64,000 nt of DNA, from NCBI GenBank assembly GCA_016432625.1, contig CP066697.1, positions 151,113 through 215,112 on the forward strand, read 5' to 3'. The translations under genes and the position numbers were made by a program. The notes beneath the pieces were generated by a model. That model searched no databases and was not told where the DNA came from. It saw only the letters and a program-made list of their open reading frames with translations. Shown here piece by piece: positions 1,926 through 55,955 of this stretch; the first letter of the stretch is position 1; each line of letters opens with the position of its first letter. The stretch comes from Candidatus Berkelbacteria bacterium (GTDB lineage: Bacteria > Patescibacteriota > UBA1384 > 2-12-FULL-50-11).

Positions 1926-3173
1926 TCATTGTTTCAACCCCGTTATTGCTTTGCGCATCATTGACTCTAAAACCGTTCCTGATCCGACCAGATCGAGGCC
2001 AACGTTGCCCAAGGCGAGCGGGGTAACGTCAGCGGGGTCGGTTAAGGACTGGGTCTCATCCTTCATTGTAACAACGTCGCCAGGTTTTAAGAACTGAACA
2101 TCGGGCTGTCTGGCAAATGGCAGGCCCTTGACCCAACCTTTGTCGAGCAGTGCCGTACGCACTTCTGGCAGATTACTCCCGCCGCCGCAGAGTAAGATTT
2201 TCGATGGCAGCAGGTCGGCTTGATCGAATTCTTCTAAAGAAAGTTGTAAGGCGGATATCCAAACCTTGATGTCGTTGCCGAGGGCGTGCTTAACGAGCTC
2301 GGCCTTCTCTGGCTCTAGTTCGTTACGGGAGTACCTTAATTTTGACTCTTCGGCCGCAGGGAATGTCTCGCCCAAAACCGCCGCCACCCTCTTGGTAAAC
2401 GCCCGGCCACCGATGGCAAACATTTTCGTTCCTTCAACGCCGCCGTTTCGTACGACGGCGATATCTGTCGTGCCGCCGCCGATATCAATAAAAATCGCCG
2501 CGAAATCCGTCGACTCTTCATCAAGGCAGCGTGCCACAGCGTACGGCTCAGCCGCGACCGCCAGAAGCTCTAAACCTAGCTCGCGCACGATCGTCTCCAG
2601 CGCCCCAAGCTGTACGATCGGGGCGAATGAGTTATAGACCCCGACTGAAAGCTCCTTACCTTGATAAGAGAGGGGGTTAGAAACCTTATAACCGTCTATC
2701 ACGACTGAAACTATCGCCGCGTTCACTAATTGAACGTCTATTTCTTCCAGGCCAGTCTCTCGGGCAAGCTCGGCACGGGCTTGGCGGAAGGCCTCGGCTT
2801 GGACTTGGTTAACGATGTCTTGCAGCTCGGTCATGGCAATCTGTGAAGCGGGATTAGCCCGGGTTACTTTAACGGAAGTGGTCGTGCCTTTTACTAGTTC
2901 GCCGGCGATACCAACGATCGCCTTTGTTGGCAGGTATTTGGCTTGAGTTGCTGCTTGCTCGATGGCTTTCTCGCAGTTTTGGGCTACACCGTGGATGTCG
3001 GTGACGCCGCCGCCTTGCATGTCGCTTAGGCGCTGCCGTTCGCGGCCAACGCCACGCACTATGCCAACACCGTCGACAACCTCAAAGACGATGGCTTTAA
3101 CAAATTCCGTGCCGATGTCTAAAGAAATTGCCCAATTCGACTGCTGTTTTTTCTTCCCTCCAAAGAGTCCCAT
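1926..3173 (-). CDS. ftsA: Cell division protein FtsA (actin-like ATPase)
   Basis: ISLDIGTEFVKA phosphate-1 motif, IFIDIGGGTTDIAV phosphate-2 motif, LCGGGSNLP adenosine motif. Confidence 0.8.
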   Translation of the reverse strand: MGLFGGKKKQQSNWAISLDIGTEFVKAIVFEVVDGVGIVRGVGRERQRLSDMQGGGVTDIHGVAQNCEKAIEQAATQAKYLPTKAIVGIAGELVKGTTTSVKVTRANPASQIAMTELQDIVNQVQAEAFRQARAELARETGLEEIDVQLVNAAIVSVVIDGYKVSNPLSYQGKELSVGVYNSFAPIVQLGALETIVRELGLELLAVAAEPYAVARCLDEESTDFAAIFIDIGGGTTDIAVVRNGGVEGTKMFAIGGRAFTKRVAAVLGETFPAAEESKLRYSRNELEPEKAELVKHALGNDIKVWISALQLSLEEFDQADLLPSKILLCGGGSNLPEVRTALLDKGWVKGLPFARQPDVQFLKPGDVVTMKDETQSLTDPADVTPLALGNVGLDLVGSGTVLESMMRKAITGLKQ

Positions 3174-17030: not shown

Positions 17031-18008
17031 ATGACAGATGTTTTAGTTATCGGTTCAGGTATGGCAGGGCTTTCAGCAGCGATTTACGCTGCTCGTTATA
17101 ATTTGGAAACGCTTGTTATTGGTCATGAGTTTGGCGGTGCCACCTCAACTGCTTGGACTATCGAGAACTATCCCGGCTACGTCTCAATCGATGGCTACGA
17201 CCTAATGATGAAGGTTAAAGAGCAGGCAGAAAAGACCGGCGCCAAGATTGTCACGGACCGAGTTATTAAACTCGAAAAGAAGAACGATCACTTCGTGGCT
17301 CAAACTTTTGAGGGCGAAATGTACGAAACTAAAACTATTATTCTTGCCTGTGGCGCGGCGCGAAAAAAAATGGGACTGGCACGTGAAGATGAGTTCGCAC
17401 TCGGAAAAGGCGTCCACTACTGCACTACCTGCGACGGCCCGCTCTACAAAGGCAAAACCGTCGCCGTAATCGGTAGCGGCGATTCGGCGGTCAAGGGTAT
17501 AAAGCTCGCCGTACAGTACGCTGAGAAAATTCACTGGCTAATCCGTGGTGAAGTTATTAAAGCCGAGCCGTTCAATTATGAAAAAGTTAAACACTACTTC
17601 GGCGACAAGATTATTGTTCACTACAACACGTCCATTACCGAGCTTTTGGGCGAGAAACGACTTAACGCCGTCAAGCTTAATACCGGTGAGACCCTAGAGC
17701 TTGATGGCTTGTTCGTTGAGATCGGCGCTCTTCCTGAAGTTGAGCTCGCTCACCACTTAGGCGCGGCGCTCGACGAGTTCGGTTTTATAAAAGTAGACAA
17801 CATGATGGAGACTAACGTTGATGGCATCTACGCTGCCGGCGACGTGACGAACTTTTTCGGCCACTTTAAGCAAGACATTACCGCCGCGGCAATGGGTTCA
17901 GTCGCCGCCACTAGCGCTTTTAAGCATATTCAACACGCCCCAACAGTCCAGGAGGCGAAAGCCACGCCCGCCGAGCAGCCATCAACGGTTAGTAATTTGA
18001 ATAAGTAG
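17031..18008 (+). CDS. trxB: Thioredoxin-disulfide reductase
   Basis: VIGSGMAGLSAAIYAAR FAD motif, redox-active CTTCDG, VIGSGDSAV NADPH motif. Confidence 0.9.
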   Translation: MTDVLVIGSGMAGLSAAIYAARYNLETLVIGHEFGGATSTAWTIENYPGYVSIDGYDLMMKVKEQAEKTGAKIVTDRVIKLEKKNDHFVAQTFEGEMYETKTIILACGAARKKMGLAREDEFALGKGVHYCTTCDGPLYKGKTVAVIGSGDSAVKGIKLAVQYAEKIHWLIRGEVIKAEPFNYEKVKHYFGDKIIVHYNTSITELLGEKRLNAVKLNTGETLELDGLFVEIGALPEVELAHHLGAALDEFGFIKVDNMMETNVDGIYAAGDVTNFFGHFKQDITAAAMGSVAATSAFKHIQHAPTVQEAKATPAEQPSTVSNLNK

Positions 18009-18054
18009 TGGGTCGGGTGGGGATTTCCTCCGCTGCGCTCCGGTATCCCCACCC
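18008..18054 (-). repeat. tRNA-Lys 3'-end copy 1 (short form) abutting the trxB stop codon
   Basis: GTGGGTCGGGTGGGGAT (18008-18024) is identical to the tRNA-Lys 3' end read on the plus strand. It pairs with ATCCCCACCC at 18045-18054 around a 20-nt CGCT-rich loop. Confidence 0.75.
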
Positions 18055-18065
18055 TCTTGGCCAAG

Positions 18066-18090
18066 TGCAAAAACCGCCCATGAGGGCGGT
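18066..18090 (-). terminator. Rho-independent terminator (minus strand)
   Basis: ACCGCCC-tcat-GGGCGGT followed by TTTTT when read on the minus strand. Confidence 0.6.
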
Positions 18091-18100
18091 CTCTGCATTG

Positions 18101-18196
18101 GTGGGTCGGGTGGGGATCTCGCGCCTTCGGCGCTTGAAAGCTCCTTCGCTCACGCTCTGTCGCTATCGAACCCACTTCGTGCGTTCTCTCCCCACC
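18101..18196 (-). repeat. tRNA-Lys 3'-end copy 2: pseudo-tRNA 3' fragment with a roughly 48-nt structured insert in the T-loop
   Basis: Minus-strand reading is GTGGGTTCGAT[AGCGACAGAGCGTGAGCGAAGGAGCTTTCAAGCGCCGAAGGCGCGAG]ATCCCCACCCGACCCAC. Removing the bracketed part restores the T-arm and acceptor 3' strand of the neighbouring tRNA-Lys. Confidence 0.75.
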
Positions 18197-18203
18197 ACAA
18201 ACG

Positions 18204-18224
18204 AAAAAGCTGCCAAATGGCAGC
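18204..18224 (-). terminator. Rho-independent terminator directly after tRNA-Lys
   Basis: GCTGCCA-tt-TGGCAGC followed by TTTTT on the minus strand. Confidence 0.6.
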
Positions 18225-18235
18225 GCTTCCGTTTG

Positions 18236-18307
18236 TGGGTCGGGTGGGGATCGAACCCACGACACACGGCTTAAAAGGCCGTTGTTCTACCACTGAACTA
18301 CCGACCC
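18236..18307 (-). tRNA. tRNA-Lys (anticodon TTT)
   Basis: Acceptor GGGTCGG/CCGACCC, anticodon stem ACGGC/GCCGT with loop CTTTTAA, T-arm GTGGGTTCGATCCCCAC. Confidence 0.9.
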
Positions 18308-18724
18308 TGAGCTCTGAGCGAGCGCAGGAGTGGAACCGGAAGGCGCGGAAAATGCTGTTATTTTTCGGCATTTGCAGCGCCGAGGGATTCCTTCAAGTTA
18401 TTTTACGGGAAACATGCCTTTTCCTCAATTAGGAAACGGATCAAGAAACGGTTGAGCTTTTGACAGTAGGTGCTATCATTGTTAGACCTTTGCGCTTCAA
18501 CGACGCAGTGCAAGGGAAATCGGAGGGTATCCAATCGTGTCATTTAATAGAAGCAATCTCGTCGCTCATGCGTCCAACAGGACGACCTTCTCCTTCAAGG
18601 GAGGGAACCGCCGACCGGCACCGAACTGCTCGCCTCTGAGCAATCAGCGTCGGCTGCAGAACATCAACGGCGGCAAACGCCAGCAGGCGAAGAAGTAGAG
18701 GCGAATCCGCTTCACACCAAAGAA

Positions 18725-18752
18725 AGGCCGGACACATCCGAGTGTCCGGCCT
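18725..18752. terminator. Strong hairpin, probable terminator of the 18772-19302 gene (possibly bidirectional)
   Basis: AGGCCGGACAC-atccga-GTGTCCGGCCT. T-rich runs follow on both strands. Confidence 0.6.
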
Positions 18753-18771
18753 CTTCCTTATATTTTAATAT

Positions 18772-19302
18772 TTAGTAATCGGAAGAACTTCTTGATTTCC
18801 CAAGTCCACCTGTCGCAATGAGCGCGATAAGCGGCGCTATCATCCACCATGGGGTGTGGCTAATAAAAATCCGGGCGATTCGTGAGTTCTGGGCGAACTG
18901 ATCCCGCGCCGCCGGATCCATAAACGAGAAAATGGCGGTTAAAATTAAGGCTGAATTTAAAAAACTAAAAATCGCCAGCTCAAAAGCCGAGAGTGCGCCG
19001 CGACCGCTTGAGCCTTTGCCCATACCGGAGCGGATCGAGACCAGTACCGTCGTTAACAAGAATATTCCCGCTGAAATTGTAAAAGGCGAGGCGTTGGCTT
19101 TAATGAATAGCTGGTTGCCGATTGTTTTATCGCCTTGGAAGAACTGCTGCAGCGGCGCGCCCAACACCTGCGCCATCACGATACCGGCGTAAATCGCCAG
19201 TAACGTCACCACAACCTTATCGCGCTGCAACACGAAGCTGTAGCCGATCGAAACGATGAAAAATATTGCTAAAAACAGATCCCAGCTTGGTACGGTTTGC
19301 AC
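18772..19302 (-). CDS. Polytopic membrane protein, function unknown
   Basis: 176-aa ORF with about 5 hydrophobic helices. Confidence 0.6.
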   Translation of the reverse strand: MQTVPSWDLFLAIFFIVSIGYSFVLQRDKVVVTLLAIYAGIVMAQVLGAPLQQFFQGDKTIGNQLFIKANASPFTISAGIFLLTTVLVSIRSGMGKGSSGRGALSAFELAIFSFLNSALILTAIFSFMDPAARDQFAQNSRIARIFISHTPWWMIAPLIALIATGGLGKSRSSSDY

Positions 19303-19351
19303 TCTTCTTTCCCTCCGCTACTACTTTCTCTAGTTTCAGGAGGAGTGTCAA

Positions 19352-19957
19352 TTAGCGTTGCAGATTGCGGAGTTGCTCGTACAGATCACGTTCTTCGCGT
19401 GAGGGGCGCTTGGGGATTTCAATATGGATAACAACCGTCAAATCTCCCCGACCGCGGCGAGTTTGGGCGCCTTTGCCACGAAAACGAAAAGCCGCGCCTT
19501 CGGGTGTGCCGGGTGGAATCTTCAGCTCGATCTCATCGCCAAAATTGGTTTTGAAACGAACCGTGTCGCCAAGCACCGCTTGCGGGATCGAAACTGCCAA
19601 TTGAACCTGGACTTGAGAGAAGGCTGATTCGAACAAATCCTCAAAAATTGAGCCAAAACCTCCGCCGCCCTGACCACTAAAACTGCTGAAGTCGAAACCC
19701 CCAGCTTGACTCCCGAAACCGCTTTGGCTGCCAAAACCGGCTCCGGCCCGTGCCCCAGCGTGGCCGAACTGATCGTACTGGGCTCGTTTGTTTTTATCCC
19801 CCAGTACCTGGTAGGCCTCGTTTATTTCCTGGAACGCCGCCTTATCCCCACCTTTGTCGGGATGTAATTTGTGCGCTTTCGAACGGTAGGCCTTTTTAAT
19901 TTCGCCATCGCTGGCACCGCGGGGAACACCTAAAACTTCGTAAAAATCTCGAGCCAT
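19352..19957 (-). CDS. dnaJ: DnaJ-like co-chaperone, truncated architecture (J domain, G/F region, one C-terminal beta domain, no zinc finger)
   Basis: [35 protein letters not shown] with the HPD tripeptide, followed by a G/F-rich stretch. No CxxCxGxG repeats. 201 aa. Confidence 0.8.
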
Positions 19958-40045: not shown

Positions 40046-40124
40046 TGAACCCAAGGTTCACTACGAACCGCCGAAGGCGGTGAAGTGCCAAGCACGTTAG
40101 TGCGAGCGGTCCTCTCCCAGGCAC
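40046..40124 (+). repeat. Hairpin-rich segment ending in a degenerate copy of the tRNA-Leu(TAG) 3' end
   Basis: GTCCTCTCCCAGGCAC (40109-40124) matches GTCCTCTTCCCGGCAC (40030-40045) at 14/16 positions. Between them lie TGAACC-caa-GGTTCA and ACCGCC-gaa-GGCGGT hairpins. Confidence 0.5.
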
Positions 40125-46409: not shown

Positions 46410-47192
46410 ATGGAAGTAATGAAACTCAGGCGGTTACTGGCTTTAACTGTCGGGCGCAATCTGCTTATTGCCGCGGTTTTTGCGTCGGTTGGCGTCGTGC
46501 TACTCTTGACCGCTCCCAAGGAGAAACCTGTACAGGCCCAAGTTGGTGGGCAATACAGCGCCAATTGGGAAGCGACCCACCTACTTATCGCTCGCTTGGT
46601 TCAACCTGACCTGTTAACTAAACAGAAGTGTGAAACCGTGAACTCAGTGACTCGCCCTTACGGTGAGCCCGCTAACTCGGAAGTGGCCATCGGCCCGTCC
46701 CGCTGGGAGGTAAGAGGTCAGATGGATGACGGCTCTCGGTTTAAAGAAATCTGGACCACGGCCCAGATCCCTGCTCGGATCACTTACGGTGAGGGAACCT
46801 GGTACACGAACTGGTTTTTCAACGGTTACTGCAGTACACCTGGCTTAAAGTTAAAGATTATGGGTAACCAGAACCAGGAAGACTGGATCATCGGCTTCAT
46901 GCAGGACAGAAGCCTAGGAATGTCGGCGATGGAATTTCGGACAATCGGTGTCAACGACGCGATGACTAATACTAGTAACTATCCTGATGGTAACGTACGG
47001 AACATCAGTAAAACGACTTCTTGCCAACGAACAAACCGCTGTGTCTTTACAACCGGTCCGTATGCCTGGACGACTTTCCACGAAATCGACCAAGCTACCG
47101 AAAGTAAGTACGAGAATGTCGGAACCTTAATACCTGCTCACTGGGATGTGAGGGGTACGTTATGTCCTGTGGGGGATAACCGTTGTGATTAA
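46410..47192 (+). CDS. Secreted six-cysteine protein, paralogue 1 of 3 (start may be the ATG at 46419)
   Basis: Signal/anchor LLIAAVFASVGVVLLL...VQAQ. Blocks shared with paralogues 2 and 3 (SEVAIG, RFKEIW, TTSCQ, GDNRCD at the C-terminus). Confidence 0.6.
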   Translation: MEVMKLRRLLALTVGRNLLIAAVFASVGVVLLLTAPKEKPVQAQVGGQYSANWEATHLLIARLVQPDLLTKQKCETVNSVTRPYGEPANSEVAIGPSRWEVRGQMDDGSRFKEIWTTAQIPARITYGEGTWYTNWFFNGYCSTPGLKLKIMGNQNQEDWIIGFMQDRSLGMSAMEFRTIGVNDAMTNTSNYPDGNVRNISKTTSCQRTNRCVFTTGPYAWTTFHEIDQATESKYENVGTLIPAHWDVRGTLCPVGDNRCD

Positions 47193-47469
47193 TATGACGC
47201 CGCAAAAGTTTTCGAACGCAGTTTTGGCCTTGAGCGTGCTAGTTTTGCTTTTGGGTATCTCAACATATTGGCAAAGTAACGCGGAGCCAAATCTTGACTC
47301 AAAGACCTCGGTTACAGAGCGGGACGCCGCACTTTCGAGAGCTAGAATCGGCGACGGCACGTATAGTTTCTCAACTAGCTTCATCCCAGGGCTTGGCTAC
47401 ATCGGCTCTGCCGAGCAGACCAGACAAAAATTTAAGCAAGATAATAAAGGAGCGATAACCAACCAATGA
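47185..47469 (+). CDS. Small membrane-anchored protein embedded in the paralogue array
   Basis: 94-aa ORF overlapping both neighbours (8 nt and 4 nt). One TM helix (AVLALSVLVLLLGI). Confidence 0.45.
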   Translation: MINMTPQKFSNAVLALSVLVLLLGISTYWQSNAEPNLDSKTSVTERDAALSRARIGDGTYSFSTSFIPGLGYIGSAEQTRQKFKQDNKGAITNQ

Positions 47470-48170
47470 AGCGTGCTGCTAGTCTGTCCGTCATATTGCT
47501 AGGGATACTAGGTTTAGTTCTGGTTAATTCGCAACAAGTGAGCGCTCAAAGTAGCGACTACACAACCAAGTGGGACGCAAATAGTCTAATCGTTGGGACG
47601 TTGCACCGCCCGATTACTGGTAACTCCGAGGGCGATTGCGTTAATGGCACGCTTCTTGGTAATTACGGCGACCCGGCCGGATCAGAAATCGCCTTCGGTA
47701 TTAATCAGTGGACCGTCAAGGGGCGTATCACTGGCTCGACAAAATTTAAAGAAGTCTGGTCGGCACCGCAGTTGCCTTATGCTTACACCTACGGCGGCAC
47801 TTGGAATGGCAGCTGCCAAAACCTTAAGCTAATTGTCTCCGGCAACAACAGCATGACTGATTGGCTGATGGGCTACATTTCTAATGAAACATATACGCGG
47901 AGCGTAATGGCTTTTCGCTCAGTTGGTATCTCGCAAGGTATCAATAATAAGGTTAACGTCGACGTTTCTCGGGCTGACAACATCGGCAAAACGACGTCAT
48001 GCCAACGCCAGAACAACTGTTTGTATGCCACTGGCGGCTATGGCTGGACGGCTGCGCACGAAATCGATGACGCCCATGCCTGGAAGCCGATCAATGTTGG
48101 TATATTAATGCCTCTCAAGTGGACGATCAGTGGTGATATCTGCGACGGTGGAGACACTAGATGCGATTAA
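47466..48170 (+). CDS. Secreted six-cysteine protein, paralogue 2 of 3
   Basis: Signal peptide MKRAASLSVILLGILGLVLVNSQQVSAQ. Shared blocks SEIAFG, KFKEVW, TTSCQ and C-terminal GDTRCD. Confidence 0.6.
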   Translation: MKRAASLSVILLGILGLVLVNSQQVSAQSSDYTTKWDANSLIVGTLHRPITGNSEGDCVNGTLLGNYGDPAGSEIAFGINQWTVKGRITGSTKFKEVWSAPQLPYAYTYGGTWNGSCQNLKLIVSGNNSMTDWLMGYISNETYTRSVMAFRSVGISQGINNKVNVDVSRADNIGKTTSCQRQNNCLYATGGYGWTAAHEIDDAHAWKPINVGILMPLKWTISGDICDGGDTRCD

Positions 48171-48901
48171 AAATCATGGCTAATAGATTAGGCATTTTGA
48201 GGGTCTTGGTGGCGGTGCTAGTCCTTTTGGTGGGGTCAATCTTAGTCGGCGACGTGCCGGCCGTAGCACAAGCCAGTGACTACACAATCAACTGGCAAGC
48301 CACTGATCTAATCGTCGCCCGACTTAAGAAACCGAATTACGCACATAACCAGGCGGAGTGCACAACTTGGCGGCTTGACCCCCTTGGTACTCCCATCGAT
48401 TCTGAAGTGGCTATAGGTGTCCATAAGTGGACTGTCAGAGGCGAGCTTCCAGGCTCAGCAAGATTCAAAGAAATCTGGAGCACTCCCGCATTACCGAGAG
48501 CTTTCACATACACAGGTGATTTCATCAATGGCGAATGTCGAAACGGTCGCTTGATTATCGATGGCTTGGCAGGTCCTAACGACTGGCTGACCGGATATCT
48601 CAATGTAAGTAACCTTGGAGTCTCAGCCATGGAAATAAGAACGGTGGGTGTCACAACTGAGGTCGGACATCACAATCTAGACCCAGGCAGTGTTCGCAAC
48701 ATCGGCAATACTACATCATGTCAGGCGAGTGGGGGCGATACTGATCGCTGTACCTACACGACCGGTGCTTATAGTTGGCTCACTCTCCACAGGTTTCAGT
48801 CGGGAATGGATAAGAAGCACATGAATCTCGGTACGATGATCCCGCTCAAATGGTCTGTCAGCGGTACCTTCTGTGAACCTGGCGACAATCGCTGCGACTA
48901 A
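48161..48901 (+). CDS. Secreted six-cysteine protein, paralogue 3 of 3 (alternative start ATG at 48176)
   Basis: Signal peptide ...VLVAVLVLLVGSILVGDVPAVAQA. Shared blocks SEVAIG, RFKEIW, TTSCQ and C-terminal GDNRCD. Confidence 0.6.
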   Translation: MRLKIMANRLGILRVLVAVLVLLVGSILVGDVPAVAQASDYTINWQATDLIVARLKKPNYAHNQAECTTWRLDPLGTPIDSEVAIGVHKWTVRGELPGSARFKEIWSTPALPRAFTYTGDFINGECRNGRLIIDGLAGPNDWLTGYLNVSNLGVSAMEIRTVGVTTEVGHHNLDPGSVRNIGNTTSCQASGGDTDRCTYTTGAYSWLTLHRFQSGMDKKHMNLGTMIPLKWSVSGTFCEPGDNRCD

Positions 48902-48915
48902 CGGGCGAAAAATCT

Positions 48916-48999
48916 GCGGTCCCAACGGGAAGTCTCGCAGCTGAGCTGCTCGGAAAGCTCCTACGCTAACGCTCCGTCGCTACCGAACCCGCGGGTTCG
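48916..48999 (-). repeat. tRNA-Glu 3'-end copy with the same structured T-loop insert as the tRNA-Lys copy 2
   Basis: GCGGTCCCAACGGGA (48916-48930) equals 49053-49067 inside and next to tRNA-Glu. Minus-strand reading is GCGGGTTCGGT[AGCGACGGAGCGTTAGCGTAGGAGCTTTCCGAGCAGCTCAGCTGCGAG]ACTTCCCGTTGGGACCGC. Confidence 0.75.
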
Positions 49000-49053
49000 A
49001 CACCGCGAGCAGGTAGTAAACACGGCCCGGAAATTCCGCGCCGTGTTCCCTAG

Positions 49054-49127
49054 CGGTCCCAACGGGAGTCGAACCCGTGATTTCCGGGATGAAAACCCGG
49101 CGTCCTAGGCCACTAGACGATGGGACC
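49054..49127 (-). tRNA. tRNA-Glu (anticodon TTC)
   Basis: Acceptor GGTCCCA/TGGGACC, anticodon stem CCGGG/CCCGG with loop TTTTCAT, T-arm ACGGGTTCGACTCCCGT. Confidence 0.9.
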
Positions 49128-53578: not shown

Positions 53579-53965
53579 TGGTGGACCTGCCGGGAGTTGA
53601 ACCCGGGTCCGAGAACCTACGAACGAAGACGTCTACAAGCGTAGAAAGTTTAAAGTCTTAGCAGCTGGGCTTGAGAGCTTTCAAAAAACCCGACTGAGCA
53701 ACATCTTATTCTGAGGAGTTGTACCGATGTGCGCACAATCCCGGTTCTACTTTTTGACGCCTCGTTACCTTAGTAGAAGTCAGGTGACGAAACGGCATTG
53801 GCCGTTAGGCTAATGCTGTTGCAAAAGAAGGAGTCGCGAACAAGTTCGCAACACGAGCTTTTGCAGTTTCAAATGCGTTTGCACGTATTTGTTTTGCGCT
53901 CTAAGGCAGGCGCGTCCGCTTGCAGTCCTCGCTGTAAACGTTCCCGTCGAAGCCAGTACAGGCCC
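53579..53965 (-). ncRNA. ssrA: tmRNA (SsrA), about 387 nt, CCA encoded
   Basis: 5' GGGCCUG pairs with 3' CAGGUCC-ACCA, giving a G3:U pair. 3' T-arm GGACCCGGGTTCAACTCCCGGCAGGTCCACCA. The internal tag frame ends ...ATPSFATALA-TAA. Confidence 0.9.
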
Positions 53966-55753: not shown

Positions 55754-55833
55754 GCCCCCGTAGCTCAGTGGATTTTACGCGCTAGCGCTTCAATCCCCTT
55801 CGCTACTTCGGCAAAATGAAACAATAGTATTCT
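55754..55833 (+). repeat. Duplicate of the first 21 nt of tRNA-Arg, followed by a hairpin and a CGCT-rich tail
   Basis: GCCCCCGTAGCTCAGTGGATT occurs at 55754-55774 and again as the tRNA 5' end at 55834-55854. The first copy is followed by GCGC-ta-GCGC TTCAATCCCCTTCGCTAC. Confidence 0.75.
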
Positions 55834-55907
55834 GCCCCCGTAGCTCAGTGGATTAGAGCGGGACGGTTCTAACGTCAAGGTCGCAGGTTCGAATCCTGCC
55901 GGGGGTA
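55834..55907 (+). tRNA. tRNA-Arg (anticodon TCT)
   Basis: Acceptor GCCCCCG/CGGGGGT (G1:U72), D-arm GCTC/GAGC, anticodon loop GTTCTAA, T-arm GCAGGTTCGAATCCTGC. Confidence 0.75.
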
Positions 55908-55955
55908 CTACTTCTACTTGACAAGCTCGGCATTTCCCCCGATTGTAGTGTGTAG

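Follow-up and report, generated by a model that had tools for sequence, protein, structure and literature searches.

The 3′ terminus of the tRNA-Lys gene in a 64-kb stretch of Candidatus Berkelbacteria bacterium DNA (contig CP066697.1; the window is the whole stretch analyzed) is present in three direct copies. The gene, tRNA-Lys(UUU), occupies 18235–18307 on the minus strand (ARAGORN; Rfam tRNA, 75.7 bits) and encodes C74 but not C75A76. It is convergent with trxB (17031–18008, plus strand), which was recognized as thioredoxin reductase from its open reading frame (ORF), its translation and a Pfam Pyr_redox_2 match. The 17-mer GTGGGTCGGGTGGGGAT occurs exactly three times on the plus strand of the window, at 18008–18024, 18101–18117 and 18235–18251, and was not matched in 100 dinucleotide-preserving shuffles even with two mismatches permitted. 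It corresponds to tRNA-Lys nt 58–74, from A58 of the T-loop to C74, and takes in three bases at the end of the T-loop, the 3′ strand of each of the T- and acceptor stems, and then the discriminator and C74. The copy at 18235–18251 is the 3′ terminus of the gene itself. The copies start 93 and 134 nt apart, which leaves gaps of 76 and 117 nt between the 17-mers. A preliminary description of the window reported the three copies with intervening segments of 82 and 116 nt; the copies are exact and the second figure is right for the 18-mer (117 nt for the 17-mers), whereas the first is slightly off. That description also placed the first copy over the trxB stop codon. The overlap is one base: the last base of the distal 17-mer is shared with the stop TAG (18006–18008) on the opposite strand, whose G is the complement of C74 in the distal copy.

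Two modules follow tRNA-Lys on the same (minus) strand, both inside the first 230 nt 3′ of the gene, and their parts are given here in the tRNA sense. The order is tRNA-Lys, terminator 1, a 117-nt body and the middle 17-mer (module A), then CAATGCAGAG and terminator 2, and finally the module B hairpin, in which the start of the last 17-mer serves as the 3′ arm. The body of module A (module 1; 18118–18234) contains the core of terminator 1 (18224–18209), which was detected by the terminator scan. It continues with a G-box, GGTGGGGA (18196–18189), that pairs with middle-copy nt 59–66, with hairpin 1 (GAACGCAC-GAA-GTGGGTTC; 18186–18168), with the motif AGCGACAGAGCGTGAGCGAAGGAGCTTTC (18164–18136) of what is called family 1 below, and with hairpin 2 (GCGCC-GAAG-GCGC; 18133–18121). 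A second piece of the tRNA, ATCGAACCCAC (nt 49–59), recurs at 18165–18175, where hairpin 1 overlaps it, and a 47-nt insert (18118–18164) separates it from the 17-mer, so the copy resembles a T-arm with a loop expanded by 47 nt. Module A has a folding energy of −41.9 kcal/mol (z = −4.0 versus shuffled sequence). The middle copy (18101–18117) is followed by CA, and thus CCA is encoded there (18098–18100).

The 76-nt body of the second module (18025–18100) consists of CAATGCAGAG and terminator 2, then a linker that leads to the 5′ arm and loop of hairpin B. Terminator 2 (18069–18090) is an inverted repeat with the stem ACCGCCC/GGGCGGT and the loop TCAT, followed by TTTT. It just misses the T-run rule of the terminator scan, is kept in the relatives L001 and L035 (L-numbers denote fetched comparison loci or contigs), and matches the terminator part of the Rfam RNAI model. 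Hairpin B (18015–18054) is a perfect 10-bp hairpin (−24.4 kcal/mol, z = −2.65) in which the 5′ arm GGGTGGGGAT (18054–18045) pairs with nt 58–67 of the distal copy (18024–18015) across a purine-rich 20-nt loop. In the predicted fold GACCCAC remains as a single-stranded 3′ tail. The preliminary description had the order of these elements right, together with the enlarged T-loop of the middle fragment and the 20-nt loop closed by the distal one.

An independently made Logan assembly of SRR12113407 matches the locus without a difference over 6,978 bp, which excludes an assembly artefact as the source of the three copies. Aligning the flanks locally to tRNA-Lys recovers only nt 56–73, with no similarity to nt 1–48, and ARAGORN and Rfam find a single tRNA at the locus. 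No ORF lies in the 76- and 117-nt intervals. The absence of an integrase, noted in the preliminary description, holds within 3 kb of the tRNA-Lys locus; none of 30 window ORFs scanned against Pfam is an integrase, Cas1, transposase or reverse transcriptase. An exact-protein look-up of TrxB returned the same contig alone and no strain variant.

The trxB/tRNA-Lys locus was taken from 22 related Patescibacteria genomes to place the copies in a comparative frame. In 11 of the 22 loci nt 58–74 of the local tRNA-Lys is copied once or twice more downstream, and L005 retains a truncated, hairpin-only version. In the module-free loci L008 and L041 the real tRNA end shares one base with the trxB stop TAG. 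Modules are present in the window, L011 and L033, and in each of them the most distal fragment (18008–18024, minus strand, in the window) sits exactly at that ancestral position with the same overlap of stop and repeat. The distal copy is the displaced original end of tRNA-Lys. It follows that DNA was added between nt 57 and the old nt 58–74 and that a new copy restored the tRNA.

Comparison of close relatives catches this addition as an insertion polymorphism. The window equals its closest relative, L033, plus a 93-nt unit with clean edges that consists of the 76-nt body and one 17-mer; a homologue of the unit in L001 is 65% identical. Module A is present in both, and the L033 ortholog is 93% identical. 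At tRNA-Gly, L033 differs from the window by an additional 142 nt together with a 17-nt copy. The insertion is missing from the window, L034 and L035, and in L033 the terminator that is shared now stands after the second copy. The modules also turn over at a fixed target. Identical tRNA-Lys genes are followed by an empty site in L041, a family 2 module in L002 and a family 1 module in L037. Family 1 (TAGCGACNGAGCGTNAGCGNAGGAGC with a covarying hairpin) is found at both tRNA-Lys and tRNA-Glu in the window (two matches versus none expected), and family 2 (GACTGCGAGC...GCGAGAAGTGGAG) is found at tRNA-Lys in L002 and L035 and at tRNA-Gly in L033. Body families are thus common to several tRNAs, and neither family occurs elsewhere in ~400 kb.

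Homologous module bodies are 55–69% identical between genomes, whereas the 17-mers vary only at positions where the local tRNA varies. Such differences include T67 of L035, which is paired with A6, T66/G69/T71 of L002 and L037, and T66, present in each of the three L001 copies. A simple binomial that takes the fragment as neutral, worked by hand from identity counts, gives P of ~0.007 for the window versus L001 and ~0.002 for L001 versus L040. The fragments evolve in concert with their tRNA. The hairpin of module B has homologues in L001, L005, L011, L038 and L040: its 5′ arm follows copy nt 60, 64 and 66 by compensatory changes, and pairing with copy nt 58–67 is conserved. Hairpin 2 changes wholly, from GCGCC/GGCGC to GCAGC/GCTGC, GCCGC/GCGGC or GAGAG/CTCTC, and is always present 2–5 nt ahead of the 17-mer. 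One covariance model over all modules was given up since the variable-length hairpins could not be aligned with MAFFT.

Copied tRNA ends are frequent in these genomes. A downstream 3′ copy follows 14 of 40 sampled Patescibacteria tRNA genes (Lys, Glu, Gly and Ser) and an upstream 5′ copy precedes 2 of the 40; only three control matches, in the wrong place or orientation, were found in this sample. The left edge of the repeat always falls within T-loop positions 57–60, and the unit duplicated runs from A58 to the gene end. At the 12 fragment-bearing Patescibacteria loci the repeats enclose 39–142 nt without an ORF. The Pfam lists of neighboring genes for the 22 tRNA-Lys loci contain no integrase at the site, and no larger intact element occupies it in this limited sample. 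Modules are also present behind tRNA-Gly of L033 and tRNA-Ser of L016. The latter, tRNA-Ser(CGA) at 2769–3000 of a Patescibacteria single-cell genome (AM-311-L09), is followed by a module of the same architecture, in which GGGAGAGGGG pairs with copy nt 61–70 and is succeeded by GAGGGGTTCGAAC, an insert of ~80 nt and exact nt 58–74. The phenomenon therefore reaches beyond the Berkelbacteria-like clade.

The 64-kb window contains two units at tRNA-Lys, one at tRNA-Glu and a degenerate one at tRNA-Leu(UAG), and the latter two are likewise 3′ of the tRNA on its strand. The tRNA-Glu module (48916–49052, minus strand) lies behind its gene (49053–49127) and is built of a terminator, the palindrome CGAACCCG|CGGGTTCG, a family 1 motif (48981–48953), the hairpin GCAGC-TCA-GCTGC and a copy of tRNA-Glu nt 57–74 with one extra T (48934–48916). 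The degenerate module at tRNA-Leu(UAG) (40046–40124, plus strand) retains GAACC-caa-GGTTC, CCGCC-GAAG-GCGG and a 14/16 copy of the tRNA 3′ end (40109–40124). A mirror case precedes tRNA-Arg (55834–55908, plus strand). This module (55754–55833) opens with an exact copy of nt 1–21, which extends to the D-loop (55754–55774), and a 59-nt spacer with a −10-like TAGTAT separates the copy from the gene. A 5′ mirror duplication is also found at tRNA-Lys of L004.

This kind of element is known and yet unexplained, and no new principle is involved. The tRNA-linked repeats (TLRs) of Escherichia coli have been known since 1978 and include the RtT repeats of tyrT/tyrV (Egan & Landy 1978; Rudd 1999; Rfam RF00391). 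In MG1655 tyrT–tyrV, nt 58–76 of tRNA-Tyr (19 nt) are repeated six times, from A58. The tyrT unit of 178 bp contains GGGGAAGGAT, which is reverse-complementary to the first part of the copied end and pairs with ATCCTTCCCC. It also contains AAGGTTCGA, the 5′ half of the T-arm, with an insert between AAGGTTCGA and A58, and the Rfam RtT consensus structure pairs GGGGAAGGAT with the copied end. The rrnB layout in MG1655 is 5S-T1-body-repeat-T2, and the repeat of the rrn-linked TLRs duplicates the final 16–18 nt of the gene. E. coli K-12 has 22 TLRs behind tRNA or 5S genes, spread over ten loci with one to five apiece. Each TLR ends with 18–19 bp identical to the 3′ end of the upstream gene and has 'no known function' (PMC8144298). 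The TLRs behind rrnA, rrnB and rrnD (rrA, rrB and rrF) sit between dual terminators, are transcribed by read-through of T1, end just past the repeat, and bind Hfq and CsrA in vitro via GGA loops; the repeat has been proposed as their processing signal (Stenum et al. 2021, PMC8144298). Under stress, sequencing coverage of the tyrT-rttR region is reported to rise (bioRxiv 10.1101/2024.07.17.603846).

The Patescibacteria modules share the architecture of these repeats. They stand directly downstream of a tRNA on the same strand at several loci per genome, and in both systems an exact copy from A58 to the gene end closes the unit. The MG1655 sequence, taken together with the RtT consensus structure in Rfam, supplied a more specific criterion: a 5′ arm that pairs with the copied end, together with a T-arm 5′ half split from A58 by an insert. 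Both features are found here and also at tRNA-Ser of L016. Further likenesses are GAGCG/GCGAG-rich purine motifs and a '...GAGT|A58' junction, the latter in several Patescibacteria modules. The 5S-T1-body-repeat-T2 order of rrnB corresponds to tRNA-Lys-T1-module A-repeat-T2 in the window (18307 to 18066), and the rrB hairpin GTTGC-GAA-GCAACGG resembles hairpin 1 of L034 and L037. In a search of Rfam with module A, RtT was the top-ranked family, with a sub-threshold match at full length (model positions 1–130) over 18099–18211.

There are also differences. The rrn-linked TLRs follow 5S rRNA rather than tRNA. The repeat has 17 nt in place of the 19 nt at E. coli tyrT because CCA is not encoded here, and bodies of 39–142 nt compare with ~160 nt in E. 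coli. The modules described here mostly begin with an intrinsic terminator, and one form of them (type B) is reduced to a minimal hairpin. Insertion polymorphism, turnover of families and mirror versions on the 5′ side are seen among them, and the host is a bacterium of the candidate phyla radiation (CPR) rather than an enterobacterium.

These results indicate that the three copies mark two small non-coding modules of TLR type, each inserted between the tRNA gene and a duplicate of its last 17 nt (probability roughly 0.62; about 0.6–0.7 for the assignment of the locus to a TLR-type module array by architecture). The preliminary description had offered small structured elements that copy tRNA ends as one of two alternatives, and the comparative data back it; that elements of this kind were already on record in E. 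coli as TLRs (RtT) had gone unrecognized.

Several observations weigh against this assignment. The RtT match of module A, at 19.2 bits and E = 0.16 in a 241-nt search, is below the gathering score of 45. The tRNA-Glu, family 2 and L034 modules have no RtT match and hit only terminator-like parts of leader families. An nhmmer search with E. coli RtT and rrB bodies gave only E > 1 in 360 kb of Patescibacteria sequence, and sequence homology to the E. coli TLRs is therefore not claimed; only short collinear motifs stand out, at p of ~0.004–0.03. Outside the B-type modules the closing stem reaches significance in just a few of the A type, which led us to reject it as a universal module feature. 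A strong terminator stands between the tRNA and most modules, and transcription of the modules is an assumption. The empty sites in close relatives mean that the modules are dispensable. The scanned ORFs include no recombinase, transposase or reverse transcriptase that would account for insertion. Repeat identity at some loci could reflect mere young age.

The mechanism of insertion and any function of TLR-type modules are inferred from these comparisons, and each single step is put forward less firmly than the array itself. A module would enter by recombination with its junction in the T-loop at A58, through a putative enzyme. It would carry or generate a second copy of nt 58–74, which would leave the tRNA intact and displace the old end downstream, where it still abuts the trxB stop. 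Beside the restored tRNA end most 3′ modules place a terminator, and 5′ modules apparently supply a promoter. That most 3′ modules start with a terminator and that 5′ modules contain promoter-like sequence fits the entry of an element carrying its own end (Campbell-type, or att-like). Modules are exchangeable, being gained, lost or replaced by other families, and related bodies lie at different tRNAs. That the copies stay identical to the local tRNA would be explained most readily by gene conversion or by unequal exchange between the repeats, or by a new duplication with every insertion. The predicted folding and the behavior of E. coli rrB suggest that, upon read-through of terminator 1, the module hairpin locks copy nt 58–67. 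The locked hairpin would stop the copied strand from competing with the true 3′ strand in tRNA folding. Hairpin and single-stranded tail together would constitute a second 3′ end, and stable-RNA 3′ processing could release a short module RNA.

Classical att scars would produce a similar picture and are unlikely. Islands or prophages would have integrated serially into the tRNA-Lys T-loop by means of a tyrosine integrase and lost their interiors, so that just the ends next to attL and attR were left. The likeness to the att repeats of tRNA-integrated islands and prophages (Williams 2002), pointed out in the preliminary description, is real. A direct repeat from the T-loop to the 3′ end in the tRNA orientation is the textbook island signature, the fragment is co-oriented with the gene, and sequence carried by the insert restores the gene. 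The distal copy is at the ancestral position, namely the site of the real tRNA end in L008 and L041, and terminators (3′ side) or promoter-like sequence (5′ side) adjoin the restored gene end. Gene content between tRNA-Lys and dnaJ varies among relatives, and both 5′-fragment cases and tandem arrays are on record among tDNA islands (Islander, PMC4383910). Heavily decayed tandem integrations, the other alternative in the preliminary description, nevertheless fit poorly. None of the 12 fragment-bearing loci has an integrase or an ORF between the repeats, and the spacers are uniformly 39–142 nt instead of a spread of decay sizes. The interval is ~0.1 kb rather than kilobases and contains no cargo; integrases are missing from the neighboring-gene lists as well as from the window ORFs. 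Body families recur from one tRNA to another, and the fragments follow the local tRNA even as the bodies diverge. No attP-like site turned up when viral contigs were scanned for the 17-mer and body motifs: the Lys 17-mer gave four coincidental matches inside coding sequence and the family 2 motif gave none.

A non-autonomous element that makes a true target-site duplication is quite unlikely. Staggered nicks at A58 and after C74 followed by gap repair would duplicate nt 58–74, and the enzyme could be encoded elsewhere, either Cas1/casposase-like or acting by target-primed reverse transcription. The idea accounts for a repeat that always derives from the local target, even for related bodies at different tRNAs, for the clean insertions, and for families that replace each other at a site with an identical tRNA. 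The casposase of Aciduliprofundum boonei is a precedent, using a T-loop-encoding segment of a tRNA gene as anchor and producing a 15-bp duplication at the tRNA end that overlaps the tRNA by only 5 bp (Béguin et al. 2016, PMC5137440). The casposon shares with the modules an anchor at the T-loop palindrome and a long duplication at the end of a tRNA gene, and its integration is conceptually like a leader-repeat array. Casposons, however, are large and have terminal inverted repeats and Cas1, none of which is seen here. The module ends (CAATGCAG... / ...GGAGGAA and AAACGGAAG... / ...GCGCGAG) have no terminal inverted repeats, and the scanned ORFs lack Cas1, transposase and reverse transcriptase. 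The left boundary wanders over positions 57–60, and a module that itself carries the replacement end gives a better account of those that begin with a terminator.

Functionless by-products of replication or repair are very unlikely. Template switching in the T-arm of a highly transcribed, palindromic gene would leave filler DNA, and the antisense-plus-sense T-arm pieces, including a perfect 16-nt palindrome at tRNA-Glu, have that appearance, as do the perfect 10-nt inverted arms of hairpin B and the inversion of the whole tRNA cassette between relatives. Random filler cannot yield body families conserved across tRNAs and genomes, and it leaves the constant A58–C74 unit and the E. coli-like architecture unexplained. 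Tandem duplication and decay of the whole tRNA-Lys gene, or an assembly artefact, both raised in the preliminary description, have nothing in their favor beyond the repeat itself and are refuted, because only nt 49–74 of the tRNA are represented, the same sharp boundary recurs in more than 12 independent genomes, and the independent assembly agrees base for base.

A broader reading of the TLR-type modules is doubtful. In it they would be widespread non-autonomous, mobile, non-coding elements, present from Enterobacteria to CPR, that target the T-loop and 3′ end of stable RNA genes, sometimes the D-loop and 5′ end, and duplicate nt 58 to the gene end by a mechanism not recognized before. Such elements might be moved by a recombinase acting in trans on minimal att-only circles, or by duplicative Cas1-like or RNA-mediated insertion, and each array would in that case document a history of repeated insertion behind a tRNA-body 'leader'.

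To our knowledge, and in the literature searched, TLRs have been treated only for enterobacteria, without an accepted origin or function. New here are their presence in Patescibacteria, their high frequency, the minimal hairpin-only form and the 5′ mirror versions, along with direct evidence of insertion polymorphism, family replacement and co-evolution with the tRNA. The TLR architecture is found in a genome-reduced CPR lineage at about a third of the sampled tRNA genes. This turns an E. coli curiosity, a 45-year-old loose end, into a tractable problem of comparative genomics that can be approached through co-occurring enzymes, homogenization and RNA processing. In practice, programs that find islands by tDNA fragments and the annotation of tRNAs and pseudogenes in metagenome-assembled genomes will often meet these fragments. 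Another RNA to which the modules can be compared is 3′ETS-leuZ of E. coli, a functional tRNA trailer that is released from the precursor by tRNA processing. It is likewise a non-coding RNA within a tRNA precursor, but it lacks a copied tRNA end and is neither a repeated nor a polymorphic module.

The tRNA cassette of the window extends over 18008–18430 and includes a promoter-like site at 18400–18428 on the minus strand (TTGAGG-17-TAAAAT); an AATTGAG...TAAAAT motif accompanies tRNA-Lys in both orientations among the relatives. The whole cassette (promoter, tRNA-Lys and modules) occurs in either orientation between trxB and the downstream gene. The tRNA-Lys is on the plus strand in L001, L005, L007, L022 and L035 and on the minus strand in L002, L008, L011, L033, L040 and L041. 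Between L001 and L040 the tRNAs are identical and the first modules homologous but the orientation is opposite, so the cassette was inverted repeatedly. The 5′ leader of tRNA-Lys (18308–18395, minus strand) is 87 nt long, compared with 21 nt in L033. The additional stretch is rich in GAGCG and includes three segments that could pair with loops of modules A and B; it may be a further, inverted module remnant, an idea that the family HMM did not support. A leader-trailer processing stem was dropped, as the three complementary segments are not nested and the family HMM has no match. A small ORF behind Shine-Dalgarno-like AAGGAG motifs was rejected for want of a consistent start codon or spacing.

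The family 1 motif AGCGACNGAGCGTNAGCGNAGGAGC has three GAGCG-rich matches in viral and metagenome contigs, none near a tRNA. The stretches lie at 330–440 of L029, an IMG/VR contig (...TTCGAACGCGCTAGCGACCAGCGACGGAGCGTAAGCGGAGGAGCGGAGCGGG), at 1130–1190 of L030 and at 2050–2090 of L031, and may be low-complexity matches due to chance or else be distantly related to the motif. The segment with variable gene content between tRNA-Lys and dnaJ is 18540–19957 in the window. A bacterial type IB topoisomerase (Top1B_N_bact/Topoisom_I) is encoded in L034 (13400–14455) and L035 (15047–16132) and not in the window. Type IB topoisomerases and tyrosine recombinases have a common catalytic fold, and the enzyme is a speculative candidate for the recombination activity behind the modules. 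F420 ligase and RibD_C are found in L035 and L038, L035 also having Vut_1, and none of these is in the window. A strong bidirectional terminator-like hairpin of 13 pairs (18723–18754) follows a 65-aa ORF by the tRNA-Lys promoter, and its weak match to the L20 leader (E = 0.015) is limited to the terminator part of the model.

All nine tRNA genes of the window (6541–55908) encode C74 after the discriminator and not C75A76, whereas the gene for transfer-messenger RNA (tmRNA; 53579–53965) encodes CCA. Some tRNA genes of L033 and L038 have the full CCA, precisely where a module or terminator unit starting with 'CA' follows. Three tandem paralogous ORFs (260, 234 and 246 aa; 46410–48901, plus strand) have no Pfam match and appear as three direct-repeat families, and the last one ends 14 nt from the tRNA-Glu fragment. 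The tmRNA, on the minus strand, specifies a long tag of 25 residues, ANAFETAKARVANLFATPSFATALA.

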